Assembly (NCBI GenBank): GCA_963769815.1 | Contig: CAVYNI010000004.1 | Span: forward strand, 268,714-332,713 | Length of the DNA stretch: 64,000 nucleotides | Source: an uncultured Gammaproteobacteria bacterium | Lineage (GTDB): Bacteria; Pseudomonadota; Gammaproteobacteria; Steroidobacterales; Steroidobacteraceae | Reading direction: 5' to 3' | Shown here: one piece after another, positions 8,453-62,959 of the stretch | Layout: each line of letters begins with the position of its first letter | Position numbering within the stretch: the first letter of the stretch is position 1 | Program-made: the position numbers and the translations under genes | The notes under the pieces: model-generated | Seen by the model: the letters and a program-made list of their open reading frames with translations, nothing else | Databases searched by the model: none | What the model was told of the DNA's origin: nothing

Positions 8453-11147
8453 ATGATGAATACCAATACGAAGCTGTGCTGCGCGATTGCGGCGATCCTG
8501 GGCGGCTCCTCCGCCGGCATCGCCTACGCGGGCCCGGCGACCGACACCGCGGAGGTGGGTACGACCCCCGCGAGCGACACCCTTTCCGAGATCACGGTCA
8601 CCGCACAGCGTCGCACCGAGAATATCCAAGACGTGCCGATTTCAATCCAGGCACTCACGAGCGAAACACTCCAGCAGCTCAATGTCCAGACGTTCAACGA
8701 CTATATCAAGTACTTGCCGAACGTCACGACCGCGAGTAACGGGCCGGGCCAGAACGAGGTTTTCATGCGCGGCTTGAGCGCCGGCTCGCAGGCAAGCCAG
8801 GGCAGCGGCTCGACGGGCTTGTGGCCCAACGTCGCGATCTACCTGGACAACCAGTCCGCTCAGCTTCCAAACCGCAACCTGGACATTTATGCCGCGGACA
8901 TGAACCGGATCGAGGTTCTCGAGGGTCCGCAGGGCACGCTGTTCGGCGCGGGCGCCGAGGCCGGCGTCATCCGTTACATCACCAACGAGCCGAAGCTCGA
9001 CGTCACCGAGGGGAACGTCAAGGCGGGTTACAGCGTCACGGCGCACGGCGATCCGAACAGCGATGTGACGGCGGTATTGAACGTGCCGCTGATCGAAGGC
9101 ACCTTGGCCGTGCGCGGGGTGATTTACGACGACCAACGCGGCGGCTACATCGACAACGTGCCGGCGACGTTCACGCGCAAGAACACCGACCTCGGGATCG
9201 CGGTTGAAGGCTACGGCGATTATCCGGCCGGTTGCAACGCGGTGGGCGCGCCGCCCTGCCAGGTCCCACCGGGGAGCCCCGGGCTCCAGAACAGCAGCCT
9301 CGTGGGCAACAACATCAACTCGGTCGACTATCAAGGAATGCGCGTCGAGGCGCTGTACAAGATCAACGAGGACTGGAATGTGCTGCTCTCGCAGTCCTAC
9401 CAGGACATGAATGCGCAGGGGGTGTTCTATCAGCAGCCGAATGCCTCCGATGGCGCTCCGCTCCAGCCGCTCGAGGTCACCTTGTTCAATCCGGCCTACG
9501 ACAAGGACCGGTTCGAGAGCACCGCCTGGACCCTCAACGGCAAGTTCGCCGACATCAAGGCCGTCTATACCGGTGGTTACCTCGATCGTCATGTCGAGCA
9601 GCAAGGCGATTACACCAATTACGCCCGCGGCTTTTATGCCGACTATTATCAGTGCGTCGGCCCCTCCGAGGGCGTAGCCACCTCACGCTGCTACTCGCCG
9701 AGCGCCACCTGGCATTCGACCGAACAGAACGAGCATATGCAGCATGAACTGCGCTTCAGCACGCCGGATGAATGGCGCCTGCGCGCCATCGCCGGCGCCT
9801 TCTACGAGGACAACAAGCTCTACGATCAGACCGGTTGGATGTACAAGACCCTTCCGCCGTGCACGTCGAACGGAGCGCCGGGCACACCGGGCAACTCGGG
9901 CTGCTTGTCGAACGTCGGGACGTTCCCGGGCACCTACGTTCAAAATCCGGGGGTGCAGGGCGACAGCACGTCTTTCTATCAGGACCAGTTTCGCCAGACC
10001 AAGCAGACGGCCTTCTTCGCGTCCGGCGACTTCGACATCATTCCGAAGGTGCTGACCATCACGGCGGGAACGCGCCATTTCCTCTTTCAGAACTCCATGG
10101 AAGGCAGCGTGCTCTCGAGCTTCGGCTGTTTCGAGGCGGGGGTGCCGGCCGGCGGATGCCACAATCCCGCCTACAGCTACAACCTCAACGCCGACAATCT
10201 TCGCGACACCGAATCGGGCTTCAAGAGCCGCGGCAATCTCACCTGGCACATCACGCGCGATGTGATGGTGTATTACACGTACTCACAGGGCTTTCGCCCG
10301 GGCGGTTTCAATCAGAACGGCGATGCCATGCATGCCTACGGCCCCGATCAAGTCGCGCAATACTTGATTCCGCGCTCGTACTCATCCGACAACCTGACCA
10401 ACAACGAGATCGGCTGGAAGAGCGAATGGTTCGACCATCGCCTGCAGTTCAACGGCGCCGTCTATCGTGAGAACTGGGACAATGTGCAGATCGAGTTCTT
10501 CAATCCGGGCGTGGTCGGCAACCTGTTCTACGACACCAACGGTCAGGACTTCCGCATCAAAGGTATCGAGACCCAACTGGTCGCCCGGGTCACGAGCGGG
10601 CTGACGCTGCAATACTCGGCGGCCTGGAACCAGAGCGTGCAGACGAATTCGCCCGCGCTGATCAACAACAATCCGGCCAGTGCGAACTTCGGCAAGCCGA
10701 TCACGACGGTCTGCGGCGGCTCGTATTACACGGGCAGCTGCGCTCCCGTCTCGAATCCGTTCGGCCCCGTTGGCGCGCCGAGCGCCGATGCGCCGCCGAT
10801 CCAGATGAGCGGGCGCGCGCGCTACGATTGGAACATGGGCGGCCTACTCACCGTTCGTTCAAGCAAGCTTCACCCACACCGGCCATTCCTTCACGCAGGC
10901 GGGATCGAATCCGACCATTTTGCCCGGCGGAGCCATCAATACCTCCCGCGGACGGTTCGAAGTCCCCGCCTACTCGACCGTGGATGCCTCGATCGGCGTC
11001 ACCAAGGATAACTGGTGGGTCAACCTGTACGGTCAGAACCTCGCAAATTCGAACGCGAGCACCTTCATCAGCACCGATCAGTTCATCGTCGAGCAGACGC
11101 CCCTGCGGCCTCGCATCCTCGGAGGCTCGTTCGGCTACAAGTTCTGA
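8453..11147 (+). pseudogene. TonB-dependent receptor (copy 1), one frame break near 10844 (or a sequencing error)
   Basis: Signal peptide MMNTNTKLCCAIAAILGGSSAGIAYA, plug EITVTAQRRTENIQDVPISIQAL, and RIEVLEGPQGTLFGAG. The frame starting at 8453 loses sense after ...RYDWNMGG. The protein continues in the frame of ORF 10920..11147 (YSPFVQASFTHTGHSFTQ...GGSFGYKF stop). Confidence 0.8.
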
Positions 11148-11153
11148 CGCTCG

Positions 11154-11178
11154 AAGGGTGGCAGGGATGGCCACCCTT
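11154..11178. terminator. Hairpin between convergent genes (9-bp stem AAGGGTGGC/GCCACCCTT, 7-nt loop)
   Basis: Read directly. It lies between the TonB receptor stop (11147) and the stop of the minus-strand gene (11183). The plus-strand side is followed by TGCTCTATT. Confidence 0.45.
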
Positions 11179-11182
11179 TGCT

Positions 11183-12669
11183 CTATTGCGATTGGAGGCC
11201 CGCGTCGCGCATCGCATCGAGCTTGGAGTAATCGACCAGTGCGGCGCATTGCTCGATGGCGGGCATATCGATGCCGTCCCCACTCACATCTACGGTGAAG
11301 CGCCGCGCGACGATCGCGATCACCTCCCCGTGCTTGGACCGGCTGTCGTACTTCTCGTGCACGGGCCGGCCGGCGACCGTCGCGTTCTTCTCGAATCCCG
11401 TGTCGCTTTCCGAGCTCGCATTCGCGGCCATCGCATCCGCAAGGCCGAGCAAGCCCGACACCGCCGAGGCATCCACGATCTTGATTTGCACGTGCGTGCC
11501 GCCCGCGCCCGAGTACTCCCCGGTGGCCGAAGAGGCCTTCATGCCCATGGCGCCCTGGCTGTTGCCGGCCGAGTCGGTTCGCTGCATACCGGGCAGCGCA
11601 TCGGGCAGGAGCGTCTTCAGCGTTTGAAAATCGACGGGTTCGACCCGGCGGTTCCCTGACATCGCACCGCCCAGTGCGGCGACCACCGCGGCGGTCGCCG
11701 CGGCGCCTTGAGCGCCCGCGGTCGGGGTCTGCGCGCCGGGGGCTGCCGCGGGCGTCTGCGCCGCGCCGGCGATGAGGCTGCCGATCGCGGCGGCGGCCTG
11801 CTGCTGGCGCTCCGCGCGAGTCAAGCCGCTTTGAAAGCCGTACGGGCTGGGATAGAGGCTATAACCCGTGACGCGGCCGAACACCGAGATGAGAACGCCC
11901 AGCAGCAGCACGACGAAAATGCTGCAAACCACCGCCGTTGCGGTGTAGCCGACGGCCTTGTCCTGCGAACTTCGCATGAGCACCGGCAAGCCGAGATAGA
12001 GAATATAGATGCCGTACAACGCGGCCAGGAGCTGGAGCACCCCGCCGAGCCCGGGCAACAACACGAATACGGTGCCGACCGCCGCCGGCGTGAACATGTA
12101 GGCGGCGCACTTCATTGCCTGCCGCTGATTGCGCTGCCCGCGAAGGTCGGCGCAAGCGCATCGATAATCAGTCCCACGAGATATACACCGAGGAGCGCAA
12201 AGCCGAATCGGGTGAGCGCATAGATCAGGCCGGTGATCACCGGCAGGCGCCAGAAGCCGAATCCGATGAGCGACATCCGGATGAAATTCATCACCGCGGC
12301 GAAGGCCGCCAGCGGAATGACGTAGCCCTTGAAAAGCTGCGCCACGCTGGTCGGCTCGGCCGCGATGATCGGCCACTCGGTCTTCGGCGTGATGAGGATA
12401 TTCTTGACGCGGTCGATGAGCGTGCGCGTCGATGCCGTGGAGCCCGAATCCCAGGCCGCAGTGCCGGCGCATAGCCGCCCGGCGGCATCCCCCCTCCGGT
12501 GGAGTGCCCGGCGGCGCCGTGCTGCTCGAGCACCGGCGTCGCTCACCGGACCTCGGGGCGGCTGGTCGGTCGACGCGTCGGGATTGCCGGCGGAACTCAG
12601 CGGCTGACCGCAGTGACCACAAAATCGCGCATCATCGGCCACGGACTGGTTGCACTTTGGACATAGCAT
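11183..12669 (-). pseudogene. Zinc-ribbon / Yip1-domain membrane protein with an uncharacterised C-terminal domain; frame break near 12137 (possibly more in the Pro/Gly linker)
   Basis: The N-terminus MLCPKCNQSVADDARFCGHCGQPL is a zinc ribbon. A Yip1-like region follows (TPKTEWPIIAAEPTSVAQLFKGYVIPLAAF...). The frame stops after APTFAG-SAISGRQ, and the sense continues in the frame of ORF 11183..12622 (QRNQRQAMKCAAYMFTPAAVG...LYGIYILYLGLPVLM...). Confidence 0.6.
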
Positions 12670-12753
12670 GGCGTTTTCCTTTCTATTTAGTTATTCGGCC
12701 TCGTCGCTAAAGGACTTGCTGCTCGCCGCCTATGGTACGCCTAGTCATGGGCG

Positions 12754-13292
12754 TCAGAAATCCGCGGCGATGTCCTCCACCCAGGCGAGCATATGCTCGG
12801 CGTACAGCCGATCGACGAGAAGCAGCGTGGTGGCCTCATCGAGCCGCACTGCGAGCACGGACAGGTCGGCCATGCGGCTGGTGCGAGCCTCGCCGAACCG
12901 CGGCATCGAGGCGGCCGATCCGAGTCGCGCGAGCACCTCGCGCGTACGAGCGCCAGTGATTTCCCATACCGCAGGCCTCCGGTCTGATCCACGAAGCAGC
13001 CCCAGTCACTTGCGCCGTCATGCACTGCGCAAGGCCTCCGAATAGCCCCATCGGCGCACAGCAGCAACGTCTCCGTGGGCGTGCGCCAGGCCAGGGTGAG
13101 CCGCGAGCCGCGTGCCGGGCGACTCACCGCTTGCAGCGGTGCGGGTAGCGGGCCCCCGATGATTTCGGCGACACCGTGCGGAACGCATCGCGCGGCGTTG
13201 AAATATCGCAATACAGCCGGCCATGAGCTCGGTTCTCGGGCGCATCCTAAATTCCGGCAAGGTCGATGCTGAAGCGAGTCCGGGTCAGCCAC
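12754..13292 (-). pseudogene. soxG: Sarcosine oxidase gamma subunit, operon 1; frame break near 12973
   Basis: A GTG start overlaps the soxA stop by 8 nt (GTGGCTGA), the same architecture as operon 2 (ATGGCTGA). The N-terminal two thirds lie in the frame of ORF 12741..13292. The C-terminus (AVWEITGARTREVLARLGSAASMPRFGE...LAWVEDIAADF) lies in the frame of ORF 12754..12936. It aligns by eye with SoxG of operon 2. Confidence 0.65.
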
Positions 13293-16213
13293 GCAGGCGC
13301 TCGCCCGTGGGATCGACGAAGGGGCCTTTCACGACACATGGCCTCGAGCGTCGAACCCAGGTGGTGTACCAACACCCGCTCGCCCACACGCTCGAACCCG
13401 CGGGCGAGCATGCCGAGCGCGACGGGCGCCTCGAGCCCGGACTATAGTAGCTCGAGGTCACATGGCCTTCCGTCAGGGTCGGTGGCGGCGCGGATGCAAT
13501 CTGCGCGCCAACCGGCAACCGCGTACGGCCATCTGCGGGTGCCAGCGCAACCAGCTGTAAGCGCTCCGCCGCACGTGCGGCGGGCCGAAGCAGCGATCGG
13601 CGCCCGACGAAATTCGCCTGCTTGCGCTCGATGCCGCGTGCTAAGGCCGACATCGCCCGGCAAGGTGGTGCCGTCGGTGTCCGTACCGATGTGGATGAAG
13701 CATTTCTCCGTGCGCAAGATCTCGAGCGCCTCGATGCCATAGGGCACGCCTGCACTCGCGGCGCGAGCGCCCAGAGGCGGTCGAGGAAGGGCCTCATGTG
13801 CGCGACCGGCAAATTGATCTCGTAGCCCAGCTCGCCGCTGAAGCTCGCACGCAGCACGCGCAAGGGCACCCCATCGAGCGAGGCCGCGCGCAGGGTCATA
13901 TGCTTCATGACGCCCGGTGCGAGCCGCTGGGTCGAATCCGGCCGCGGCGAGCCAGTCCCACGCTCGGGGCCCGGCCACGGTAATGTTGCCCCACCGCGAG
14001 GTAACCTGGGTGACGAGCACTTTGAGATGGGTGTACTCGCACTGCAGCCACTCCTCGAAGGCTGCGGCCGTTCGCTCGACGCCCGCGCTGGTCGTATTGA
14101 CCCAGTAATGTCCCTCGCCGAGACATGCGACGATCCCGTCGTCCACGAGGATGCCGTTCTCGTTGAGCAGCACGCCGTAGCGCGCCTGACCCGGTGCGAG
14201 CGTCGACATCGTGCCCACATACATGAGATCGAGAAACTCGGCGGCGTCGACGCCGAATACCTCGAGCTTGCCGAGCGGCGAGCCGTCGAGCAGCCCCGCG
14301 CTTCGGCGCACCGCCAGAGCCTCACGCCGCGCCGCGGACTCGAGGTCTTCGCCCGCCCGAGGATAGGCCGCGGGCCGGTACCAGGAGCCGAATTGCTCGA
14401 ACAGCGCACCTCGCTCGCGGTGCCACTGCTCGTCGGGCAGTCGCTTCAAGGGACGGTAGAGCTCGCCACGGCGCCGGCCCACGAGCGCCCCCAAGGTCAC
14501 GGGGGCAAAGGGTGGACGAAATTTCGTCGTGCCGACCTCGCCCGGTGCGCGACCCGTGAGATCGCCCATGGAAACCAAGGCATTCACGTTGCTGGTCTTG
14601 CCCTGATCGGTTCCCATGCCGGTGGTCGTGTAGCGCTTGAGATGCTCGATCGAGCGATAATTCTCCCGCGCGGCGAGCGCGACGTCGTCCAGGGTCACAT
14701 CGTTCTGCAGATCCACGAAACGCTTGCCCGCCCGCAAGCGGTGGCGCGCACCGTCCGGCGCCTGCGTGAGGGCGAGCGATCGGCCGGCGCCGCCGACGGG
14801 CGCAGGCGGCGCAGGTGCGCCGCGCGCCAATGCCTCGCCGACTGCGGCGCCGTGCAGGCGCGCGGACTCGACGTCGAAGACACCGGCGCACGCCCCGACG
14901 CTGAACAGGCCGCGTGCCGCACCGTCGGGCACGAACATCGCGCACTCCTCGACCCATCGGAGCTTGCCCCCCGCCTGAGAGTGCAAATGCACGGCGGGCG
15001 CATGACCTCCGGCGCTCAAGACGGCATCGCACTCGAGCGCGACCGGCGCACGGCGCTCGCCGCTCTGCACGGTACAGCCCGCGACCGCGCGGACGCCGGC
15101 GACCCGCACGATGCTCGCCGACTCGAAGACGCGCACGCCCTTCGGCGCCGCGCCCCGGGCGCCGGGGTCGGCAGGTTCCCGGCGATCGACGATCGCAGCG
15201 ACGTCGATCCCGGCGGCCGCCAAAAACTCGGCCATTTGGTAAGCGGAGTCGCTGTTCGCGGCAATCACCACGCGGCGGCCGCAGGCCACGCCGAACCGTG
15301 CCGCGTATTTTTGGGCTGCGCCGGCGAGCATCACACCCGGCCGGTCATTGTCCGGAAAAAGCATCGGGCGCTCGATGGCGCCCGTCGCCGCCACGATGGC
15401 CCGGGCACGAATCTTCCAGAGGCGCTCGCGCAAACGCCCCGACTCCGGATTGCCGCTGCGGTCCTCGAGATTCTCGCGCGCGCACAACAGGTTGTGATCG
15501 TACACGCCGAAGCCGAGCGCACGGGGGAGCATGCGAACGCCCGCATTGGCCGCGGCCGCGAGGAGCTCGGCGATTCGCGCATCGCTCCCTGAGCGCAGCG
15601 CGCCGCCGAAATGCGCACCGCTTGTCATCAAGATCGTGCGCGCCCCTGCGCGCGCCGCGGCGGATGCAGCCGCAAGCCCCGCGATGCCGCCGCCGACCAC
15701 CGCGACGTCCGCCTCGATGGATGTCTCATCGTAGCGGTCGGGATCGAGCTCGCGTGTCCCACGGCCCAAGCCCGCCATACGGCGGATCGAGGGCTCGAAC
15801 AGATGCCAGCTCGGCCACTTGAACGTTTTGTAATAGAAGCCGGCGGGCAAGAGCGCGGAGAAGAAGCCGTTGAGTGCACCCAAGTCGAAGCCAACGCTCG
15901 GCCAGCAATTGACGCTGCGCGCCTCGAGACCGGGATGGAGCTCGAGGAGCGTTGCGCGCACGTTCGGCGTGCGCCGGCCTCCCGAGCCGATGTCGACCAG
16001 TCCGGTCGGCTCCTCGACGCCGCAGGAGATAATTCCGCGCGGTCGGTGCAGCTTGAAGCTTCGACCCACGAGCTGCACGCCGTTGGCGAGCAGCGCCGAT
16101 GCGAGCGTATCGCCCGCGAACCCCGTGAAGGCCTCGCCGTTGAATCGAAATGCGATGCTCGATGAGCGGTCGAGACGCTCGCCGGCCGGTGCGGGCAGAC
16201 GATAGGAGCTCAT
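13285..16213 (-). pseudogene. soxA: Sarcosine oxidase alpha subunit, operon 1; about 5 frame breaks in the last ~650 nt (near 13930, 13762, 13641, 13437, 13337)
   Basis: MSSYRLPAPAGERLDRSSSIAFRFNGEAFTGFAGDTLASALLANGV..., with an NAD/FAD fold and a GcvT-like C-terminal domain. The sense alternates between three frames: ...AAAGFDP / LAPGVMKHMTLRAASLDGVPLRVLRASFSGELGYEINLP / AGVPYGIEALEILRTEKCFIHIGTDTDG / ARGIERKQANFVGRRSL...GHVTSSYYSPG / LEAPVALGMLARGFERVGERVLVHHLGSTLEA / VVKGPFVDPTGERLRG stop. It is colinear with SoxA of operon 2. Confidence 0.85.
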
Positions 16214-16476
16214 GGGTCTGCCGCATCCGTCATGGCGTACACGCGCACGATCTCGTGGGTGACGGTGTCGCGCACGAGGTTGAACCATTGGCCGCAGCCG
16301 TACGAATGGCGCCAGCGCTCGCGGTGCAGTCCCTTCGGATTGTCGCGGAAGAACAGATACTCGCCCCAGGCGGCATCGTCGGCCGAAAGTGCGGGCCGCG
16401 CAATGTGCGAGGTGCCGCCGCAGACGAATTCGCTCTCATCGCGCGGGCCGCAGTAAATGCAAGGGATCAGCATCAT
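16210..16476 (-). CDS. soxD: Sarcosine oxidase delta subunit, operon 1
   Basis: 88 aa: MMLIPCIYCGPRDESEFVCGGTSHIARP...RERWRHSYGCGQWFNLVRDTVTHEI. The stop overlaps the soxA ATG (ATGA). Confidence 0.9.
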   Translation of the reverse strand: MMLIPCIYCGPRDESEFVCGGTSHIARPALSADDAAWGEYLFFRDNPKGLHRERWRHSYGCGQWFNLVRDTVTHEIVRVYAMTDAADP

Positions 16477-16491
16477 GTCGAACGCTCCGGC

Positions 16492-17718
16492 CTAGTGTGC
16501 GATGCCGGAGGCGGCTGCCTCGTCGATCAGACGTCCGGAGATGAATCGCTCCAGCTGAAAGGGCTCCGCCAGCGCATGATTGACCCCGGTTGCGAGCACA
16601 TGCGCGAACGTCCAACCGCCGACGGGAATGGCCTTGAAGCCGCCGGTACCCCAGCCGCAGTTGATGTACAGGCCCGGGATGGGCGTCGGCCCGATGATGG
16701 GGCTCGAGTCATGCACGACGTCCACGATGCCCGCCCACTGGCGCATCAAGCTCAAGCGGCTGAACGACGGAAAGAGCGCCAGTGTCGCCGCCAGGATCGA
16801 CTGCTTGACGGCGAAACTGCCGCGCTGTGCGTAAGAGGGAAACAAATCGAGCATCGCGCCGATCACGATCTCGCCTTTATCGGACTGGCTCACGTAGGCG
16901 CCGGTACCGGGGGACAGGATCACGGTGTCCAAGATCGGTTTGATGGGCTCGCTCACCATGGCCTGCAAGGCGTAGCTCGTGACCGGCAACCGGAATCCCG
17001 CGAGCTTCGCGAGCACCGAGCTGTGACCGGCCGCCGCAATGCCGATGCGCTCGGCGCGGATCGTGCCGCGCGTGGTCTTCACGCCGCTCACGCGGCCGCC
17101 CTCCTGAATGAACTCCTGCACCTCGCAGTTCTGGATGATGTCGACGCCGAGCGCCGCGGCTGCGCGGGCATAGCCCCAGGCCACCGCATCGTGCCGGGCG
17201 CAGCCCGCGCGGCGCTGGCAGAAGCCGCCGAGTACGGGGAAGCGTCCGTGAGGCGATACCGCGAGCGAGGGCGCGAGCGCCGCGATCTCGGCCGCGGTCA
17301 GCATCTCCGCCGCGACGCCGTTCATGCGCATGGCATTCGCCCAGCGCGCCATCGCGTCGAGGTCGTGACGGCTGTGCGCGAGAAGAATGAGGCCGCGCTG
17401 ACTCAGCATGATGTTGAAATTCAGCTCACGCGACAATCCCTCGTACAGCTTGAGGGAGAAGTCGTAGAGCCGCGCACTTTCCGGATAAAGGTAGTTGGAG
17501 CGAACGATGGTGGTGTTGCGCCCGGTGTTGCCGCCGCCGATCCAGCCGCGCTCGAGCACCGCGACGCGCTTCGCACCGTGATTCTTCGCGAGGTAATAGG
17601 CGGTGGCGAGCCCATGACCGCCGCCGCCCACGATCAGAACGTCATAGCGCGGTGAAGGCTCGGAATCGCGCCATGCCGGGCGCCAGAATTCATCTCCCGC
17701 AAGGGCGCCGCGCAGCAA
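16492..17718 (-). CDS. soxB: Sarcosine oxidase beta subunit, operon 1 (intact; start uncertain)
   Basis: [40 protein letters not shown] and a C-terminal [11 protein letters not shown]. The ORF-track start at 17718 is a TTG. Similarity to SoxB of operon 2 (MSRQAFSAFALIQRGLSG...) continues upstream as PYSRNYSAWGLLRGALAG. The only upstream in-frame candidate is CTG 17751, 7 nt after GAGGGG. Confidence 0.88.
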   Translation of the reverse strand: MLRGALAGDEFWRPAWRDSEPSPRYDVLIVGGGGHGLATAYYLAKNHGAKRVAVLERGWIGGGNTGRNTTIVRSNYLYPESARLYDFSLKLYEGLSRELNFNIMLSQRGLILLAHSRHDLDAMARWANAMRMNGVAAEMLTAAEIAALAPSLAVSPHGRFPVLGGFCQRRAGCARHDAVAWGYARAAAALGVDIIQNCEVQEFIQEGGRVSGVKTTRGTIRAERIGIAAAGHSSVLAKLAGFRLPVTSYALQAMVSEPIKPILDTVILSPGTGAYVSQSDKGEIVIGAMLDLFPSYAQRGSFAVKQSILAATLALFPSFSRLSLMRQWAGIVDVVHDSSPIIGPTPIPGLYINCGWGTGGFKAIPVGGWTFAHVLATGVNHALAEPFQLERFISGRLIDEAAASGIAH

Positions 17719-17762
17719 CCCCCAGGCGGAGTAATTTCTCGAGTATGGCAGCGGCGGACCCC

Positions 17763-19013
17763 TCAGCGCTCGGGCGAGCAGGCGCGCTGTTGTGCCGCTT
17801 GCTCGAGCCGGTCCTCAAGCTCCGTGCAGTACCAATCCACGAACTGGATGACGCCGCCCTCGTGCACGGGCGAGTACGGCGCGGGATCGTAGGCGGGAGA
17901 GTTCACACCGATTTGGTTTTCCTGGCATACGCGCCGGTCCGCCTCGTTCGTCGCGAGCCATACCTCGGTCATGCGCTTCAGGTCGTAATCGACGCCCTCC
18001 ACGGCATCCTTGTGAACCAGCCACTTCGTGGTGAGCAGCGTCTCGGTCGGGCTCACCGGCAACAGTCGAAACGAGATCGCGTGATCGGCGAGCACGTGGT
18101 TCCAGGTGCTCGGATAGTGAAACAGCAGCAAGGTGCCGAGGTCGGGCTCGGCGATGCTGTCGATCAGCGGCCGGCGCACCGCCGCCCTGCCGTCCATGGT
18201 GAAGCTCACCGCCCCTTCGACCAGCGGCATGCGCGAGGTGCGGTACTGGCCGTTCTCCGCAAGATGGAACCGGCTCGGCAAGCCGAGGGATTCCCAGTGA
18301 CTCCACTTGTTGGTGATCAAGGGATTCTTCTCCGCGCCTTCGACGCCGGTGACGGTCGGGGTCTCCGGAAAGGTGCGAATGAGCTCGGGGTGATTGGCGG
18401 AGCAGTGATAGCACTCGCGATTGTTCTCCCACACGAGCTTCCAGTTGGCGCGCTCGACGATGGTGGTCTCGAAGGCCACCTTCGTCTGGTGCAGCTTGTG
18501 CGGCAAGAAGTAGGGCTCGATGTGCCGGCGGATCACCTCGAAATCCGGGGCCACCTTGGCAAGACACACCCAGATGTAGCCGCCGACGCTCGCGCAGTGC
18601 ACGACATGCAGACCGTATTGCGAGCGGTCGAATCCGGCGCCCATGTCGCGCGCGGCGAACAAGCGCCCGTCGAGATGATAGGTCCATTGATGATACGGAC
18701 ACACCAGCCGGGTCACCGAGCCGCGCTCGGCGGAGCAAATCCGCGAGCCGCGATGCCGGCAGGCATTGTGAAACGCATGCAGCTCACCGCTGCGGTCGCG
18801 AACCACGACGACCGGGTATTCGCCGATCTGCACCGTCAGGTAATCGCCGGGATTCGGCACCTCGCAGTCATGACCGACGAACAGCCAGTCCCGATACCAG
18901 ATCATCTCGAGGTCGACCCGATGCTCTTCCTCGCCGCAGTAAAATTCCCGCTCGAGGGCGGTCTCGTGCTTGCGGCGCCGCAGCCGGTCGAGCATGACCT
19001 CGCGCGCGCTCAT
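17763..19013 (-). CDS. Rieske [2Fe-2S] non-heme-iron oxygenase alpha subunit, GbcA/Stc2-like (candidate betaine N-demethylase)
   Basis: 416 aa. Rieske motif CRHRGSRICSAERGSVTRLVCPYHQW. The catalytic domain contains NNRECYHCSANHPEL. It lies directly upstream of soxB on the same strand. No partner reductase gene is present in the window. Confidence 0.85.
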   Translation of the reverse strand: MSAREVMLDRLRRRKHETALEREFYCGEEEHRVDLEMIWYRDWLFVGHDCEVPNPGDYLTVQIGEYPVVVVRDRSGELHAFHNACRHRGSRICSAERGSVTRLVCPYHQWTYHLDGRLFAARDMGAGFDRSQYGLHVVHCASVGGYIWVCLAKVAPDFEVIRRHIEPYFLPHKLHQTKVAFETTIVERANWKLVWENNRECYHCSANHPELIRTFPETPTVTGVEGAEKNPLITNKWSHWESLGLPSRFHLAENGQYRTSRMPLVEGAVSFTMDGRAAVRRPLIDSIAEPDLGTLLLFHYPSTWNHVLADHAISFRLLPVSPTETLLTTKWLVHKDAVEGVDYDLKRMTEVWLATNEADRRVCQENQIGVNSPAYDPAPYSPVHEGGVIQFVDWYCTELEDRLEQAAQQRACSPER

Positions 19014-19154
19014 ATGGACTTTTGCAATGGGCTCGATCCCCTCAATCAGCGGGCACTCAGTCTAGCAGCAGCCCTTTGGCGCGGCATGACTGCGCGCGAC
19101 GTGTTCCACCGGGGAAGCGACCGCCTCGCGTGCATTCTGGGTAAACTGCGCTGC

Positions 19155-21293
19155 ATGATGCCTCACGCGCGCGCGATGATCCTGTGCCGTTTCATACTCG
19201 GCCTCGCGAGCCTGGCAGCGCTGGCTGCACCCGCCTCGGCGAGAACCGCGCGCGCGGCTACGCCGCCGCAGTCCAAGCGAGTGGGCCGCATGATGCTCGA
19301 GCGCTGCGCGGCGGGGCCGGTCTACTGCGGCCGAATCGACCGTCCGCTCGACCCCACCGGCGCGATCGCCGGCCGGATCGCGATTTATTTCGAGTTCTAC
19401 CCGCACACATCGGCGGCCCCGTCCGAGGGGACGCTGGTCGCGACCGAGGGCGGCCCCGGCTATCCGGCCACCGAATCGCGGGCGGACTATCTGGCGTTGT
19501 TCGCGCCGTTTCGGACCTCACGCGACGTCGTGCTCATGGACAACCGCGGAACCGGCAAATCCGGCGCCATCGACTGTCCGCAGCTTCAGCGTGCGGACCG
19601 GTGGACGGTGGAGCTGGTGGGAGCGTGCGGCGCTTCCTTGGGTGAGCGCTCGGCCCTCTACAGCACGGCCTACGCCGCCGACGATCTGGCCGCCATCCTC
19701 GAGTCCCTCGGGACCGGACCGATCGATCTCTACGGCGACTCCTACGGCACGTACTTCGAGCAGGTGTTCGCGCTGCTGCATCCCGACGCCTTGCGCAGCG
19801 TGGTGCTCGACGGGGCCTATCCATTGGACGGTCCCGACTATGCGTGGTACCCGACCTATGCACCGGCGATGCGCGACAAGTTCGACATCGCCTGCCGCCG
19901 CTCAGCGACCTGTTCGCGCTTCCCCGGCAGCTCCGTGGCGCACGTCCAGCCGGTGCTCGAGCAGTTGCGCCGCGAGCCGTTCCCCGCGCGCGCCTTCGAC
20001 AGCGACGGCCAGGCGCGCACCTTCGAAGCCAATGCCGCGGAGCTCGCCATCGTCATGTTCGGCAGCGCCCCGCCCCTCGCGACCGTCAAGGAGGTCGATG
20101 CCGCGGCGCGCGCCTTCGAGCGCGGCGATCGGCAGCCGCTGCTGCGGCTCATGGCCGAGACCGCGAGCGGTGTCGATTCCAGGGACCCTGAGGCCGATCC
20201 GAAGCACTGGAGCGCCGGACTCGCCGCCGCTGTCATGTGCCAGGATCCGCCGCAGATCTTCGACATGCGCTTGGCGCCCATGGAGCGCCGAGCGCAGCGC
20301 GATCGTATCATCGCCGAACGGCGCCGCGCCTTTCCGAAAACCTACGCACCCTTCACCATCGACGAGTATCGGGCGATGCCGCTCGACTACAGCTTTATCG
20401 ATCAATGCGTCGATTGGCCGGTCGCACCCGCGAGCCACCCCGCCTCGCACGTCGTGCCCGCGACCGCACCGTATCCGGACGTGCCGGCGCTCATCGTCTC
20501 CGGAGAGCTCGACAACATGACCACGGTCGCGGACGGCGCCGCGGTCGCGCGCGCCTTTCCGCATGGCCGGCAAGTGATCGTTGCAAACAGCTTTCACGTC
20601 AATGCGCTGCCGCGGGCCCGCAGCCCGTGTGCCGCCGAGCTCGTGCGCCAGTTCATCAAGACCCACGAGGTCGGCGACACGCGCTGCGCCTCCGAAGTGC
20701 CGCCGGTGCGGCTGGTGCCGGGCTTTGCGACCAGCGCCCGCGATCTCGCCCCCGCGGAGGCTCTCCCGTCGAATACCGCCTCCGAGCTGCAACTGCGGTT
20801 CGCGAGCGCCGCCGTGCTCACTGCGGGCGATGTGGTGACGCGGCTTCGCATGAACTCGAGCGGCCACGGCGTGGGCCTTCGCGGCGGCCGCTTCACCATC
20901 GCCGCGCACGGCGGCATGCGGGTGATCGAACTGAATAAGGTGCGCTGGACGGAGGACCTCGCGGTATCGGGGATGATACGCAAAGCGCGCGGTCCTGCGG
21001 GCAACGTCCGTGCTCACCTCGTTCTCGCAGGGGCCGAACGGCTGTCGGGCGCGCTCGAGGTCGCATGGGACGACGATGCGGCGGTTGCGCCGCCTCCGGC
21101 GCGCCCGGCGCCGCCGCGGGCGCGCTCGCCGAAATTCGCGGCACGATGGCGGGGCGCGGGTGGCGGCGCGGATGCCCGCGCCCTGAAACGATCCCGGCCA
21201 GGATCTCTGCATGGCCGCGCACCGGGCATTTTTGCGCAATGCCAGCCGATTGACCGCATTGACAGCCCCGGCGCCGCGGCAGGTGATATATAG
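19155..21293 (+). CDS. Secreted alpha/beta hydrolase (TAP-like/prolyl-aminopeptidase-like fold); C-terminus uncertain
   Basis: Real part of ORF 17652..21293, starting at ATG 19155. Signal peptide MMPHARAMILCRFILGLASLAALAAPASA. Nucleophile elbow LYGDSYGTYF and the block MDNRGTGKSG. After ...LEVAWDDDAAVA the frame becomes Arg/Pro-rich. Other frames read ...ALAEIRGTMAGRG and VAARMPAP stop (TGA 21184..21186), so one or two 3' frame breaks are possible. Confidence 0.7.
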   Translation: MMPHARAMILCRFILGLASLAALAAPASARTARAATPPQSKRVGRMMLERCAAGPVYCGRIDRPLDPTGAIAGRIAIYFEFYPHTSAAPSEGTLVATEGGPGYPATESRADYLALFAPFRTSRDVVLMDNRGTGKSGAIDCPQLQRADRWTVELVGACGASLGERSALYSTAYAADDLAAILESLGTGPIDLYGDSYGTYFEQVFALLHPDALRSVVLDGAYPLDGPDYAWYPTYAPAMRDKFDIACRRSATCSRFPGSSVAHVQPVLEQLRREPFPARAFDSDGQARTFEANAAELAIVMFGSAPPLATVKEVDAAARAFERGDRQPLLRLMAETASGVDSRDPEADPKHWSAGLAAAVMCQDPPQIFDMRLAPMERRAQRDRIIAERRRAFPKTYAPFTIDEYRAMPLDYSFIDQCVDWPVAPASHPASHVVPATAPYPDVPALIVSGELDNMTTVADGAAVARAFPHGRQVIVANSFHVNALPRARSPCAAELVRQFIKTHEVGDTRCASEVPPVRLVPGFATSARDLAPAEALPSNTASELQLRFASAAVLTAGDVVTRLRMNSSGHGVGLRGGRFTIAAHGGMRVIELNKVRWTEDLAVSGMIRKARGPAGNVRAHLVLAGAERLSGALEVAWDDDAAVAPPPARPAPPRARSPKFAARWRGAGGGADARALKRSRPGSLHGRAPGIFAQCQPIDRIDSPGAAAGDI

Positions 21294-21520
21294 CTGAAGC
21301 GGAATTGCTACCCACTCAAGCCATGAAGAGCATCGACCGGTAAGGGCAGTCGGCCGCTTCGGGCCTTGATCCCTTCGACCACACCCGCGCCGTCCGGCCT
21401 CCCGCGGGTAGCGAATTTTAGTCCAGCTGAATCCCGGTGGTGGCGCTCGGCGACTTGAGGCTGCGCGGGCGCCGGCTTCTACGCGGCCCCGCCCGGCAGG
21501 GCTCGCGGCGCTTGCCTCGG

Positions 21521-22538
21521 TCATTGCGCGGGTCTCGCCGATTTTGCGCTCCGCGCTCGGCGGATAGCCGTATTGATTGCGATAGCACTTGGAGAAGTGC
21601 GGCGGTGACTGAAAACCGCACGCGGCCGTGATATCCATGATCGGCATCGCCGTCTGCAGCAAGAGCTCGCGGGCGCGGCGCAGACGCATCTCGAGGTAAT
21701 ATCGCTTCGGCACGCAATTGAGGTCGCGTTTGAAGAGCCGCTCGATCTGACGGCGCGAGAGTCCCGTGGTGCGGGCGATCTTCTCGAGCGACAGCGGCTT
21801 CTCGATGTTTTCTTCCATGAGCTGGGCCACGCGAATGAGTCCGCGATGAGAGACGCCCACCCGGGCGCGCAGCGGAATGTACTGGCGGTCCTTGTCCTTG
21901 CGGACCCGGTCGACGATGAATTGCTCGGAAACGCGCTGCGAGACGCGCGAGCCGAGCTTCGCCTCGATGAGATTCAGCATCAAATCGAGCGGCGCCGTGC
22001 CGCCCGAGCAGGTAAACCGATTGCGATCGATGGTGAAGAGCTGATCGCTGATCAGCACGCGGGGAAATTCCTCGCGCAGCGCCGAGATGTTCTCCCAGTG
22101 GATGGTCGCGCGGTAGTTGTCGAGAAGTCCTGCACGTGCGAGCGCATAACCGCCCGTGCACAGCGCGCCGAGCGCGACGCGGCGGTCGGCCATGCGCCGC
22201 AACGCCATGAGCAGCGCCGGGGAGACGGCCTCGCGGATATTCACCCCGCCGCAGACGAACAGAATGTCGATGGGCTCGAGCTTGTCGAGCATCGCGGTCG
22301 GGTCGAGCTTCAGTCCGCCGCTCGACTCGGTCGGTGAGCCATCGAGACTGATGACCGACCATTCATAGACGTCCTTGCCGACCAGACGATTCGCCATCCG
22401 CAGAGGCTCGATGGCATTGGCGACGGCGATGAGGGAATAGTTCGCGAGCGTGAGGAACGCGTACTTGCACTTGCGCAAAACGGCCGGCGATTCCAAGCAA
22501 ATCTCCCGAAAGCCGGAATCCCACCCGGCAGGCGCCAT
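21521..22538 (-). CDS. GlxA-family (DJ-1/PfpI-like domain + AraC HTH) transcriptional regulator, GbdR/CdhR-like; the natural stop appears lost
   Basis: ATG 22538 (MAPAGWDSGF...KYAFLTLANYSLIAVANAIEPLRMANRL...). The C-terminal AraC HTH ends ...GFQSPPHFSKCYRNQYGYPPSAERKIGETRA. The frame then runs on for more than 500 codons, antisense to the hydrolase gene (ORF 19902..22610). A TGA one nucleotide out of frame sits at 21523..21521 (gcaATGAcc). Confidence 0.75.
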
Positions 22539-48942: not shown

Positions 48943-49849
48943 ATGGCCATGAATCACGACGTCATCATCTCCTGCGCCGTCACCGGCGACGATACCAAGG
49001 TCACCAAGAGCCCGTACTGCGCCATTACCCCGGAGCAGATCGCGGCGACGGCGATCGAAGCCGCCCAGGCAGGCGCAGCCATCGTTCACATTCATGTGCG
49101 CAATCCGGAGACGGGCGCATTCAGCATGGAAACCAAGTACTACCGCGAGGTGGTCAAGCGCATTCGGGAAAGCAACGTCGATGTGCTGGTGAATCTCACG
49201 TGCGGCATGGGCGGGTACATCGTCATCGGCGAGCACGGCCTGAAAGATACGCCTGCGCCGGGCAGCGATTTCGTCACCCAGGAAGAGCGCATGCGGCACA
49301 TCATCGACCTGTGCCACGAGGGCAAGTACCGTCCCGACATCGCGACCCTCGACTGCGGAAGCTTGAACTTCGGCGACTCGCAACCGTGCGTACATTTCCA
49401 CGCCGAACTATCTGCGCCAGGGAACCGCGATCGCCCGCGACCTGAAGGTCAAGCCGGAGCTCGAGATATTCGACACCGGCAACTTGTGGTTCGTGAAGCA
49501 GATGATCAAGGAGGGCCTGCTCGATGCTCCCGCGCTGATTCAGCTCTGCATGGGCATCCCGTACGGCGTTCCCGCCGATGTGGGCCATTTGATCGCGATG
49601 GTCAACGAGCTGCCCGAGAACTGCAACTGGGGCAGCTTCGCCATCAGCCGCATGCAGATGCCCTGGGTCGCGCAATCGGTGCTCCTCGGCGGCAACGTGC
49701 GCGTCGGCCTCGAGGACAACCTGTATTTGAGCAAAGGCGTCTATGCGAGCAATGCCCAGCTGGTGCAGAAGGCCCGCACCATCGTCGAGGCCATGGGGGC
49801 GCGCATTCTCACCCCGGCGCAGGCCCGCGAGCGCCTGAAGCTTCATTGA
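48943..49849 (+). pseudogene. Beta-keto acid cleavage enzyme (BKACE/DUF849; 3-dehydrocarnitine-cleavage-type); frame break near 49381
   Basis: MAMNHDVIISCAVTGD...AAIVHIHVRNPETG...LDCGSLNFGDS / NRAYISTPNYLRQGTAIARDLKVKPELEIFDTGNLWFVKQ...NVRVGLEDNLYLSKG...RERLKLH stop. The second half lies in the frame of ORF 49484..49849. Confidence 0.8.
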
Positions 49850-49858
49850 GAAGATCCG

Positions 49859-50335
49859 GTGACCGCGCTGCCGCCCTATCGAGCGACCATCGAATCCGAT
49901 TGGATCGATTACAACGGCCATCTGCGGGATGCGTTTTATTGCGTGGTGATGAGCTACGCCATCGATGACGTCATGGAGCATCTCGGACTCGATGCCGCGT
50001 ACCGCGAGCGCACCCACTGCACGCTCTACACGGTCGAGCTGCACATGCATTACCTGCACGAGATCAAGGGCTCCGATGAGCTCTCCGTCGTGACCTCGAT
50101 CGTGAATGCGGACCGCAAGCGCATCCACGCGGCCTGCGATTTTCTGTGCCCTGGAATCGAGGGCCCCGCGGCAACGGCCGAGGTCATGCTGTTGCATGTG
50201 CATCAGGGCGAGAAACCGAGCGTCGTTTCCTTCCCGCCGGAGATCGCCGCACGCCTCGAGGCGTTGAGGCTCTCGCCCGAGACCCTCGAGAAGCGTGGAC
50301 CGGGCTCCCGCAAGATCGAGCTCAAGCCGCGATAG
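49859..50335 (+). CDS. Hotdog-fold (4HBT-type) thioesterase, betainyl-CoA-thioesterase-like
   Basis: 158 aa. IDYNGHLRDAFY motif. It lies immediately after the BKACE gene, as in carnitine catabolic operons. Confidence 0.75.
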   Translation: MTALPPYRATIESDWIDYNGHLRDAFYCVVMSYAIDDVMEHLGLDAAYRERTHCTLYTVELHMHYLHEIKGSDELSVVTSIVNADRKRIHAACDFLCPGIEGPAATAEVMLLHVHQGEKPSVVSFPPEIAARLEALRLSPETLEKRGPGSRKIELKPR

Positions 50336-50340
50336 ACACC

Positions 50341-52420
50341 ATGCCGTCTTATGATCTACGACGTTTGATCGCGCCGCGCAGCATCGCGCTCATCGGCGCG
50401 AGCGCCTGGACGGACGCCGTGGCGGTCGGCAATGCCGCCATCGGCTATCGCGGGCTGATATGGCGCGTGCATCCGACCCGCGCCTCGACGCCCGAGCGAC
50501 CGGTCTACCGCTCCGTCGCCGAGCTCCCGGGCTCCCCCGACGCCGCTTTCATAGCCGTCCCCAATCAGGAGGCGCCGGCGGTCGCCGCGGCGCTCGCCGC
50601 GCGGGATGCCGGAGGATTCGTCTGCTTCAGCTCGGGGTTCGGCGAGCTCGGCACGCCGCTTGGGCGAGAGCTCGCCCATGAGCTCGTGGTGCGATCCGGG
50701 AGCCTGCCCTTCTTCGGCCCGAACTGTTATGGCTTCGTGAACTTCTTCGACCAGGCGGCGATGCTGCCCGACCAGGTCGTCGGAGAGCCGCTCGAGCGCG
50801 GCGTTGCGCTGATCTGCCAGAGCGGCACCATCTCCCTCAGCTTGAGCTTCAACGAGCGCTCCGTGCCGATCGGCTATCTCTTCTCGGTGGGCAACCAGAG
50901 CCGCCTCGCCGTCGAGGATCTCATCGAGACCCTGTGCGACGATCCGCGCGTGACGGCGTTCGGCCTGTACCTCGAGGGAATCAAGGACGCGGAGCGGTTC
51001 GCCGCCGCGGCGGACAAAGCGCGGCGAGCCGGGAAGCCGATCGCCGTGATCAAGACCGGCCGCACCGCCGCCGCGGCGCGCACCGTTCACAGCCACACGG
51101 GCGCACTCGCCGGGGCCGACAGCGTGTTCGATGCGTTTTGCCGTCAAGCCGGGCTCGCGCGCTGCGATACCCTCGGCGGGCTGTGCGAGACGCTCAAGCT
51201 GTTCCACGCGGGCGGCGCGCTCGCGGGCCGCAAAGTGCTGATCATGGGCGCCTCGGGCGGCGACATGGCGATGACGGCGGACGTGGCGCGCACCGTCGAG
51301 CTCGATTTCGCACCGATTCCGCTCGAGCAGGCGCGCACGCTGCAAGCACTGCTTACCGAGCGCGTGACCGTCGCGAATCCGCTCGATATTCACACCTATT
51401 TGTGGTTCGACCCGCCGGCGCTCAAGCGCGTATTCACCACCGCGATGCGCTCAGGCTACGATGCCGTCGGCTTCATGCTCGACTTCCCGCCGGAAGGCAA
51501 GGCCGACGCCTCCTCCTTCGACGCCGCGATCGATGCCTACATCGAGGCCTCGCACGGCGCACCCTCGCGGGTTGCGCTGATCTCCTCGCTGCCGGAGACA
51601 TTGAGCGCGCGCGTGCGCAAGCATTGTCTCGCCGGCGGTGTCGTGCCGCTGCAGGGCCAGCGCGAGGCCTTGGAGGCGCTCGCCGCCGCGGCCGCCGTCG
51701 GCAGCGCGTGGCGCGCGGGTCCCGGCGTTCAGCTCGCCCTGCCGGGCGCCGCCGCAGCCGGCTTGCGGCACGGACGAGGGCCGCAGTCTGACCGAATCGG
51801 ACGCGAAGGCCGCGCTCGCCGCTTTCGGGGTCGCGGTGCCCCGCAGTCATCTGGTCGCACCGGCCGCCGCGGCAAGCTGCGCCGAGACCATGGGCTTCCC
51901 GGTGGTGATCAAGGCCGTCGGGGCGCATCTCGAGCACAAGACCGAAGTCGGCGGCGTCGCGCTCAATCTGCGCAGCGCCGCCGAGGCCGCCGCCGCCGCG
52001 CAGCGCCTGAGCGCACTGTCCGAAACCCTGCTGGTCGAGGAAATGATCGGCGACGGAGTCGCGGAGATTCTCGTCGGCCTCATCCGCGATCCGCAGTTCG
52101 GGCAAGTCCTCGTGCTCGGCGCCGGCGGCGTGCTCACCGAGCTGCTCGCCGACTCGGCGACCCTTCTGCCGCCCTTCACGCGCGATGCGATCCGCGGCGC
52201 ATTGCGGGGACTGAAAGTCGCGAAACTCCTCGACGGGTTTCGCGGCAAGCCGCGCGGCGATGTCGAGGCGCTGGTCGATGTCGTGGCCGCCATCGCGCGC
52301 TACGCGGCAGCGAACAGCGCAACGCTATTGGAGATTGACGTCAATCCCGTGATCGTGCGGGCCGCCGGGCGCGGTGCCGTCGCGGTCGATGCGCTGATCC
52401 GTCTCAAACAACCCGGTTAA
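50341..52420 (+). pseudogene. ADP-forming acyl-CoA synthetase-like protein (CoA-binding + ligase-CoA + ATP-grasp domains); frame break near 51760
   Basis: MPSYDLRRLIAPRSIALIGAS..., FGPNCYGF and SHTGALAG lie in ORF 50146..52338. The ATP-grasp part (SLTESDAKAALAAFGVAVPRS...GFPVVIKAVGAHLEHKTEVGGVALNL...LEIDVNPVIV) lies in the frame of ORF 51638..52420. Confidence 0.75.
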
Positions 52421-61388: not shown

Positions 61389-61960
61389 GGATGCTCGAAC
61401 GCGCCCGCCGTGGCATGCCGACAGGGCCCGCGCTCGCGCTGCTGCTATTCGCCGCGCTCGCCGAATCTGCCGAGGATATCCGTGACATTCGCGGTCCAAA
61501 GGCCGTGCCTGCATCCTCGATGCTGCCCGCGCTGCTGACCGGCGCGATCCTCGCAGCGCTCCTCGTCTATGCCCTCTGGCGCCGGCGTCATCGGGAACCT
61601 CGCCGCCGCGAGCTGAGCCTCTCAGAACAAACCCTGGCGCGTTTGGAGGCGACACGAACCCTGATGCGTCCGGCCACGGCCCGGGAGTTCGGTATCGCCG
61701 CATCGGAGGTGATCCGAGACTACATCGAGAAGCGCTTTCAGGTCATCGCGACGCAACGAACGACCGAGGAATTTCTGCAGTCGCTGCTGCAGAGCTCGAA
61801 TCAGGCGCTCGCGCGCCACCGCTCGCTGCTCGCCGATTTCTTGCATCAATGCGACTTCGTCAAATTCGCCGGCACCTCGCTGGCGGCTGAGGACCTGGAG
61901 TCGCTCCTGCATCACGCCCGCGGTTTCGTGCGGGAGACCGCCGAGCCACGCCCCGCATGA
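61385..61960 (+). CDS. DUF4381-like membrane protein
   Basis: 191 aa. DIRDIRGP followed by one TM segment and a helical C-terminus. ATGA overlaps occur at both ends (61385 and 61957). Confidence 0.75.
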   Translation: MRMLERARRGMPTGPALALLLFAALAESAEDIRDIRGPKAVPASSMLPALLTGAILAALLVYALWRRRHREPRRRELSLSEQTLARLEATRTLMRPATAREFGIAASEVIRDYIEKRFQVIATQRTTEEFLQSLLQSSNQALARHRSLLADFLHQCDFVKFAGTSLAAEDLESLLHHARGFVRETAEPRPA

Positions 61961-62959
61961 TCCGGTTTCTTCAGCCCGAGTGGCTATGGGCATTGAGCCT
62001 GCTGCCGCTCGCGGTTCTGTGGCGGGGCCGGCGCGGACCGGTCGCCGCCGTCGAATATTCCGACGTGAGCCTGGCGCGCGACATCGCACGCCGCACTCGG
62101 AGCCGTATCGGCGGAGTACTCTGGCTGCTGCCGATCATCGCGGCGGCGCTCATGATCGTCGGATTGGCCAGACCGCAGCGCACCCACAGCCGTACCGAAG
62201 TCACCGTGAACGGAATCGACATCGTTCTTGGACTGGACGTCTCCGGATCGATGCAGGCGCTCGACTTCATGGTGGACAATTACCGGGTCAACCGCATCGC
62301 CGTGGTCAAGTCGGTCGTCTCCCAATTCATCGACGAGCGCCCCAATGACCGCATCGGTCTCATCGCTTTTGCGGCGGCTCCCTATATCGTGAGTCCACTC
62401 ACCCTGGATCATGACTGGCTGCTGCAGAATCTCGAGCGAGTCAACGTCGGCATCGGCGATGACGATGGCACCGCCATCGGTTCGGCCATTGCGGCCGCCG
62501 TGAATCACTTGCGCACCACGAGGGCAAAATCCAAGGTCGTCATTCTCTTGACCGATGGCGTCAACAACAGCGGAAAGATATCGCCGTTCGCCGCCGCGGA
62601 GGCCGCACGCGCCTTGGGCGTGAAGGTCTACACCGTCGGCGTCGGCGTGCGCGGCAAGGCGCCCATCCCCGTGCGGGATGAATCCGGCAGGACCCGCGTG
62701 ATCATGATGAACGTGGACGTCGATGAGAAGACACTGCAGGCGGTCGCCCATGAGACCGGCGGACAGTTCTATCGCGCGACCGATACGGACTCGCTGAAAA
62801 AAATATACGAGCAGATCAACCGTTACGAGACCTCGGCCCAAACGGTTCAGAAATTCGAGCACGTCGAAGAGCTCTATCGGTGGACCCTCTTTCCGTCGCT
62901 GGGCTTTCTTGGGCTTTGGCGTGCTCTTGCAGCAAACCCGATATCGCAGGCTACCGTGA
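61957..62959 (+). pseudogene. VWA-domain membrane protein BatA-like; frame break near 62913 just before its natural stop
   Basis: This ORF is not in the supplied track because the frame is open to the window edge. MIRFLQPEWLWALSLLPLAVLW..., VWA MIDAS in IVLGLDVSGSM, and ILLTDGVNNSG. The canonical C-terminus FLGFGVLLQQTRYRRLP stop (TGA 62957..62959) is in a different frame from the body. Confidence 0.75.

Follow-up and report, generated by a model that had tools for sequence, protein, structure and literature searches.

Are the many reading-frame breaks in this stretch of DNA mutations of the organism, or were they introduced when its genome was assembled? The window (the whole stretch analysed, 64,000 nucleotides) belongs to the study genome, G000, an assembly of 5.2 Mb in 9 contigs with 64% G+C. 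The initial annotation offered two readings and chose neither: uncorrected indel errors, or real decay of the genes for methylamine catabolism along with their paralogues. The first fits all of the evidence gathered here. Judging from sequence comparisons, we put at roughly 90% the probability that the breaks are indel errors left in the consensus of a long-read or hybrid assembly rather than mutations of the organism.

The breaks were pinned with a custom frameshift-aware aligner, run against orthologous proteins as the initial annotation had suggested. Alignments to relatives, protein and DNA together, located 23 of the roughly 37 breaks that had been claimed, each to within 11 nt or better. 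Four further claims were backed by Pfam profiles or domain sets that are split between pieces (12136, 49378 and 51766) or by inspection of the frames (48652). The breaks in the dimethylglycine dehydrogenase (DMGDH) gene, soxB-2 and soxA-2 were pinned again in DNA alignments of seven same-genus genomes covering 4.7 kb of coding DNA, and the site at 26824 in soxA-2 was added. In addition, every one of the 18 switches that an independent codon-usage HMM called in the window coincides with a verified site. The claim that the lesions are 1-nt indels holds for the protein-guided placements, in which each alignment-verified event is a one-base shift, but not at 25741, where the DNA alignment gives +2 nt. 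The relevant features of the window are as follows.

10844 to 13924, both strands: putative error patch 1, with at least seven frame breaks within 3.1 kb
10844, plus strand: insertion in the 3' end of TonB receptor 1 (orthologue-guided alignment)
12136, minus strand: break in a Yip1-domain gene, the Yip1 profile being divided between two adjacent pieces (positions 2-91 and 93-172)
13336, 13436, 13642, 13754 and 13924, minus strand: insertion, deletion, insertion, deletion and insertion in soxA-1 (orthologue-guided alignment)
13925 to 21400: clean stretch without a frame break, comprising the 5' part of soxA-1, soxD-1, soxB-1 and neighbours (alignment and HMM)
21480 to 22496, minus strand: GlxA/AraC-type regulator, 338 aa aligned without a frameshift (78% identity, one additional codon)
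22734 to 25208, plus strand: DMGDH gene, breaks at 23148 (+1), about 24023 (-1), about 24592 (-1) and about 24734 (+1)
25242 to 26503, plus strand: soxB-2, breaks at 25354 (+1), 25383 (+1), 25741 (+2) and 26063 (+1; T4 read as T5)
26806 to 29804, plus strand: soxA-2, breaks at 26824, 27109 and 27505, all +1
31648 to 36070, both strands: putative error patch 3, comprising sulfotransferase-2, TonB receptor 2 and a possible break near 36070
31648: +1 in sulfotransferase-2 (alignment to G012 proteins)
32965 (-1) and 33149, 34053, 34339 and 34619 (+1): TonB receptor 2 (alignment to G012 proteins)
About 36070, minus strand: possible break (claimed earlier at 36076), visible solely where the HMM segmentation changes frame and absent from the scored break candidates
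43482 to 45569, minus strand: BetI and BetB, two normally separate genes in one ORF (Pfam domain layout)
45682 to 47595, plus strand: OpuAC and permease (ProX/ProW), two normally separate genes in one ORF (Pfam domain layout)
48652 to 51766, plus strand: scattered breaks in three genes, for which HMM calls add to the evidence
About 48652, plus strand: break in the C-terminus of a ProV-like ABC ATPase (three-frame inspection)
49378, plus strand: break in a BKACE-family gene, with BKACE profile positions 2-114 and 119-274 on separate pieces
51766, plus strand: break in an ADP-forming acyl-CoA synthetase-like gene, with CoA-binding and Succ_CoA_lig on one piece and ATP-grasp_5 on the next
61957 to 63999, plus strand: BatA-like and BatB-like VWA genes in one ORF (Pfam)

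Not every break that had been proposed is a break. The supposed loss of a stop codon at 21523 dissolves on alignment, the regulator being aligned without interruption across its 338 aa. The sites placed at 44890-44961, about 46760 and 62913 lie at gene-gene junctions in the BetI/BetB, ProX/ProW and BatA/BatB ORFs, where the three frames are compatible with either an indel or a natural fusion. Pfam searches of the pieces around 12973, the break claimed in soxG-1 (which sits within patch 1), and around 36076 returned no matches.

The breaks had been described as unevenly distributed, and they are. Binned at 2 kb, the 28 sites have a variance-to-mean ratio of 3.05, a value not attained in any of 20,000 simulations with uniform placement (p<1e-4). 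The edges of the clusters can be seen within single genes. All five soxA-1 breaks fall in the last 640 nt (13291-13930, or 22% of the gene's length; p=5e-4), with codons 1-758 aligned without a shift, and all three soxA-2 breaks fall in the first 700 nt (the first 23%; p=0.013), leaving the other 2.3 kb clean. Between 13925 and 21400 the HMM made no break calls, and SoxB-1 was aligned over 415 of 415 codons, free of shifts. Patch boundaries cut genes (soxA-1 and soxA-2), patches extend over genes of both strands, and the breaks group by DNA stretch rather than by gene.

How far does this pattern extend beyond the window? The HMM, in which a call is a same-strand frame switch without a terminating stop, found 657 switches genome-wide, with all 9 contigs represented. 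Given its precision (18/18) and sensitivity (18/28) in the window, the true total would be about 1,000. The genome-wide calls are clustered as well (variance-to-mean 3.25 in 10-kb bins, with 52% of bins empty), and 15 patches carry 6-26 breaks apiece over about 1-12 kb, at a spacing of one break per 270-950 nt. Dense patches elsewhere in the genome affect the canonical uvrA, a CzcA-like efflux pump, treY, degP, and genes of methionine salvage, the homogentisate pathway and cofactor F420, and the joined translations of the genes in these patches read through. Two of the dense patches span C5:1002831-1015209 and C5:268848-271881. Break density is also 6-fold greater in the highest local G+C class than in the lowest, a trend that partly reflects better detection by the HMM at high G+C and to which we therefore give no weight.

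Among the same-genus genomes, G000 (9 contigs) carries 11 private indels that break the frame over the 4.7 kb of aligned coding DNA. G007 (10 contigs) and G010 (20 contigs) carry 3 each, with no site recurring between genomes, while the four assemblies of 110-350 contigs (G005, G006, G012 and G001) have none. The indels of the many-contig genomes are in-frame: they are deletions of 3 nt, plus a +5/-2 pair in G006 with a net change of +3. The few-contig assemblies are presumably long-read assemblies, a platform that we infer from contig number only. An exact-protein look-up with soxD-2 for an independent copy from the same species gave no matches, and a homologue search of a protein collection with the read-through DMGDH gave a best match of 91% identity and no same-species record.

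Protein-guided alignment allowed 22 events to be typed, of which 16 are insertions and 6 are deletions, and genome-wide the insertion-like and deletion-like calls stand at 457 to 200 (p=4.5e-24); natural bacterial indel spectra are deletion-biased. The frame-corrected aligned genes are free of in-frame stops, and after correction the alignment-verified genes share 62-90% amino-acid identity with their orthologues. A search for lesions other than 1-2-nt indels (nonsense mutations, large deletions, excess non-synonymous change) found none.

Taken together, these observations point to an assembly artefact: the breaks are spread genome-wide, clustered, and found in unrelated genes within patches that respect neither gene boundaries nor strand; many-contig relatives lack them, and few-contig ones have theirs at other sites; and they come with no other lesions, a normal dN/dS and an insertion bias. 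Gene-fragmenting indel errors are a documented failure of long-read bacterial and metagenome assemblies (PMC12007338, PMC9262707, PMC8442456). As in those cases, 1-2-nt indels in G000 split conserved genes into adjacent ORFs, occur throughout the genome, are missing from accurate assemblies of relatives, and are unaccompanied by nonsense or other lesions. Most of the G000 consensus would then be accurate, with stretches of about 1-12 kb in which there may be one spurious inserted or missing base per 270-950 nt. Most likely, coverage was low in these stretches, polishing failed there, or gaps were filled with long reads, although we infer both the sequencing technology and the cause of the patches. 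Each indel would shift the frame, so that intact genes look like strings of short ORFs.

Perhaps the consensus instead mixes metagenome reads of co-existing strains or close relatives, with indels placed where the haplotypes differ. The sharp boundaries of the patches (1-12 kb) would suit such a collapse, as would the varying synteny among relatives of the accessory catabolic and transport genes in the window. Mixed haplotypes should also add mismatches, however, and the substitutions private to G000 in the dense DMGDH patch are not elevated relative to other genomes. We regard this explanation as improbable; if it were true, the breaks would still be artefacts, but they would flag strain-variable regions.

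It is a little harder still to believe that, in the living organism, frameshift mutations are eroding the genes for catabolism of glycine betaine, dimethylglycine and sarcosine, those for the TonB receptors, and the paralogues of these genes. Breaks are concentrated in certain genes with neighbours free of them, several of the affected genes have in-genome paralogues, and core genes (rpoB and rpoC, for example) are unbroken. The absence of breaks from rpoB, rpoC, gyrA, gyrB and dnaK must indeed be counted against the artefact reading. But the clustering follows the DNA stretch and not the gene, similar patches lie genome-wide in unrelated single-copy genes (the canonical uvrA among them), and paralogous sequence is not enriched in the patches (p=0.35). 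The corrected genes also evolve like intact orthologues. When the DMGDH gene is read through its breaks, the protein matches more than 100 full-length DMGDH proteins along 100% of its length, at 84-91% identity; its homologues carry the label of Steroidobacteraceae MAGs. The dN/dS of the gene against six orthologues is 0.07-0.11, no different from intact pairs (0.07-0.15), and its G000-private substitutions are distributed 14/5/27 by codon position, a pattern of purifying selection, though both measures are weak tests for very recent inactivation. Orthologues of the same genes carry private breaks in other few-contig assemblies and none in many-contig ones. True pseudogene sets show mixed lesions (nonsense mutations, deletions, insertion sequences), a deletional bias, relaxed selection and a per-gene distribution. 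With its many frameshifted genes and some intact housekeeping genes, G000 resembles recently host-restricted bacteria undergoing reductive evolution, but it shows none of these hallmarks; every event is 1-2 nt and the set is insertion-biased.

Less credible again is that the indels are real and present in the cells. Such a Steroidobacteraceae population would carry kilobase-scale patches of dense, insertion-biased 1-nt frameshifts, for example from localised error-prone DNA synthesis with uvrA itself broken, caught before other decay set in. Patchy, insertion-biased frameshift mutagenesis of this sort would be a new mutational phenomenon, and no finding favours real indels. Biological recoding, by programmed ribosomal frameshifting or transcriptional slippage, is very unlikely: the corrected frames do encode conserved proteins, but nothing further speaks for it, the break sites share no slippery motif or homopolymer, a single gene would need up to five shifts in both directions, and the orthologues lack the shifts and have uninterrupted frames.

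Returning to the artefact reading, its value is as a quality flag and not as biology. With about 1,000 frame-breaking errors left by the HMM estimate, automatic annotation would yield many false pseudogenes, truncated proteins and spurious fusions. In the window, the affected genes include those for dimethylglycine and sarcosine oxidation and two TonB-dependent receptors. Gene loss, pathway incompleteness or "erosion" inferred from G000 is unsafe before polishing, and the same caution applies to the few-contig assemblies G007 and G010.

What kind of error might this be? The initial annotation had placed the breaks at short runs, a description that did not hold up. Around 559 break sites, whose positions are good to some 10 nt, the longest run inside a 12-nt distance has the same distribution as around 10,307 coding background sites. 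The lack of a homopolymer link argues that the errors are not of the classic homopolymer type and counts against the artefact reading, since it sets G000 apart from typical Nanopore R9 residual errors; such Nanopore errors are described as homopolymer-linked. Nor does a uniform basecalling bias match breaks that are insertion-biased and strongly patchy; this combination suggests stretches that had low coverage, went unpolished or were filled in across gaps, or else another platform. No k-mer near the 559 break sites is enriched more than 3-fold. As a side observation, GACTC (a GANTC-type motif) is 1.9-fold enriched at break sites, with p=7e-4 before correction for multiple tests.

The assembly under study (G000) comprises 5.21 Mb in 9 contigs, with 64% G+C and an estimated completeness of 96%, and the window (C4:268714-332713) has no Ns. 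A catabolic cluster in the window leads from glycine-betaine through dimethylglycine to sarcosine; its members are a betI/betB-like ORF, proXWV-like transporter genes, the dimethylglycine dehydrogenase gene (DMGDH) and two sets of sarcosine oxidase genes (soxBDAG). Two TonB-dependent receptors and sulfotransferase-like genes are also present. The soxBDAG-type sets (12650-29804) lie on the minus strand at 12.7-17.7 kb and, after DMGDH, on the plus strand at 25.2-30.4 kb; they share about 65% nucleotide identity, and the duplication is also found in relatives.

The initial annotation listed at least 30 single-nucleotide frame breaks, and offered either uncorrected assembly indels or real gene erosion as the cause. 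When same-genus orthologous proteins were aligned to the window with a purpose-written, frameshift-aware dynamic-programming aligner, every break so located, in seven genes, fell within 11 nt of its proposed position. In two seven-genome nucleotide alignments the DMGDH, soxB-2 and soxA-2 events could be placed with single-base precision, and an extra soxA-2 break emerged.

Frame breaks in the window (located by protein-guided alignment except where stated)
10844: TonB receptor 1
12136: Yip1 (one Pfam profile over adjacent frames, positions 2-91, then 93-172)
13336, 13436, 13642, 13754, 13924, minus strand: soxA-1
23148, 24023, 24592, 24734: DMGDH
25356, 25390, 25740, 26065, plus strand: soxB-2
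26824, plus strand: soxA-2 (seven-genome nucleotide alignments)
27115, 27506, plus strand: soxA-2
31648: sulfotransferase 2
32965, 33149, 34053, 34339, 34619: TonB receptor 2
~48652: ProV-like gene (CBS-like C-terminus carries on in the next frame; frame inspection)
49378: BKACE (one Pfam profile over adjacent frames, positions 2-114, then 119-274)
51766: CoA-binding and ligase domains, then ATP-grasp (Pfam domain set over adjacent frames)

A regulator "stop loss" proposed at 21523 proved to be no break, as 338 residues align there without a shift. The proposed breaks at 12973 and 36076 are candidates, with no Pfam matches on the adjoining pieces. The uneven distribution was borne out: the 28 sites gave a variance-to-mean ratio of 3.05 in 2-kb bins, with 21 of 32 bins empty, and none of 20,000 uniform simulations attained either value. 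Overall, the initial observation is correct and its breaks are well located, and their clustering is real.

What produces them? With a probability of roughly 0.9, we attribute the breaks to residual consensus indel error in a long-read-type assembly, a known failure mode (PMC12007338, PMC9262707, PMC8442456). Low depth could have produced the affected patches (stretches dense in breaks), as could failed polishing or gap filling with long reads. The patches follow the DNA and not the genes. Patch 1 (10844-13924) affects a plus-strand gene at its 3' end and one or more minus-strand genes, and reaches just the final 640 nt of soxA-1. The first 758 codons of soxA-1 are clean, its five breaks all falling within its final 22% (p=5e-4). 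Patch 2 (23148-27505) stops 700 nt into soxA-2, leaving the other 2.3 kb clean. Such edges would be heeded by a process working on stretches of consensus, but not by one working on genes.

The breaks extend far beyond the window. A codon-usage model trained on 417 long G000 ORFs was used in an HMM of seven states, one for each of the six reading frames and one for non-coding sequence, to decode all contigs; a break was called at a same-strand frame switch where the upstream frame stayed open for at least 30 nt past the switch. In the window, all 18 calls fell at verified sites, recovering 18 of 28; genome-wide there were 657 calls, present on every contig, or about 1,000 breaks after correction for sensitivity. 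These were strongly clustered (variance-to-mean ratio 3.25 in 10-kb bins; 52% of bins empty vs 28% expected), with 41 patches of at least 4 breaks. Fifteen dense patches, two of them in the window, hold 6-26 breaks each over 1.3-12.4 kb, one per 270-950 nt. In the others, the pieces once joined translate into ordinary conserved proteins whose functions are unrelated: canonical UvrA, a CzcA-like efflux pump, methionine-salvage enzymes, TreY, homogentisate-pathway enzymes, cofactor F420 biosynthesis enzymes, DegP and sugar-nucleotide enzymes. The genes rpoB, rpoC, gyrA, gyrB and dnaK are free of breaks. The canonical uvrA (C5:268848-271881) has about 7 switches within one patch; the densest patch (C5:1002831-1015209) has 26 in 12.4 kb, and a translation-GTPase-like gene near it (C5, ~1,046,638) has two.

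Bacterial indels in nature are deletion-biased. Protein-guided alignment typed 22 events as 16 insertions and 6 deletions; by DNA alignment, one of the six is really a +2 insertion and a further +1 insertion lies at 26824. The reassigned event, at 25741, is an inserted AG that the protein-guided aligner had scored as a 1-nt deletion. Genome-wide, 457 switches were insertion-like vs 200 deletion-like (p=4.5e-24). Break sites showed no enrichment for homopolymers or any 4-6-mer, and the "short runs" seen at them initially occur everywhere in 64% G+C DNA. The errors are therefore not of the classic Nanopore kind, which is homopolymer-linked. Paralogous sequence was not enriched in patches. Break density climbs with local G+C, but the HMM itself has greater sensitivity at high G+C.

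In seven same-genus genomes, private frame-breaking indels were counted across 4.7 kb of coding alignment spanning DMGDH, soxB, soxD and soxA (5' part).

Private frame-breaking indels by assembly
G000: 9 contigs, 11 indels
G007: 10 contigs, 3 indels
G010: 20 contigs, 3 indels
G005, G006, G012, G001: 110-350 contigs, 0 indels

The events in G000, G007 and G010 are all at different positions, and indels in the other four preserve frame (3-nt deletions, and a +5/-2 pair, net +3, in G006). Since private events occur only in genomes with few contigs, which would reflect long reads, they track assembly type and not lineage. G007 (C4, L004) carries -1, +2 and +1 in DMGDH; G010 (C13, L008) carries +1 and +1 in DMGDH and +1 in soxA. 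Both probably need polishing too, and all three assemblies should be polished before any gene loss is claimed. Another relative, G011 (4.7 Mb, 7 contigs), scores just 63% completeness, which suggests that like errors break many of its marker genes.

It is very improbable that the methylamine and betaine catabolic genes are truly eroding. No frame-corrected gene contains an in-frame stop. Compared with six orthologues, corrected DMGDH gives dN/dS values of 0.07-0.11, and intact pairs give 0.07-0.15; this measure is weak at detecting very recent inactivation. At otherwise invariant columns, private G000 substitutions fall 14/5/27 by codon position; their total of 46 lies inside the 29-76 of other genomes, and so there is no substitution excess, whether error or neutral. 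Over its whole length, read-through DMGDH is 84-91% identical to upwards of 100 proteins (807-845 residues), labelled as from Steroidobacteraceae or Gammaproteobacteria MAGs; neither an exact-protein look-up nor a DMGDH homologue search found same-species sequence in the protein collection. Neutral decay does not leave a gene with four to five independent indels and nothing else wrong, and there is no biological novelty here.

Three ORFs each join what look like two genes, and breaks proposed at 44890-44961, ~46760 and 62913 fall at their junctions:

43482-45569, minus strand: 695-aa ORF with TetR_N and BetI-type TetR_C_6 (aa 24-201), then a complete aldehyde dehydrogenase domain (aa 226-684)
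45682-47595, plus strand: OpuAC substrate-binding domain joined to ABC permease
61957-63999, plus strand: BatA_N and VWA joined to a second VWA (BatA/BatB-like)

From its domains, the first reads BetI and BetB as one protein; the cause is a natural fusion or else an indel close to where betI stops.
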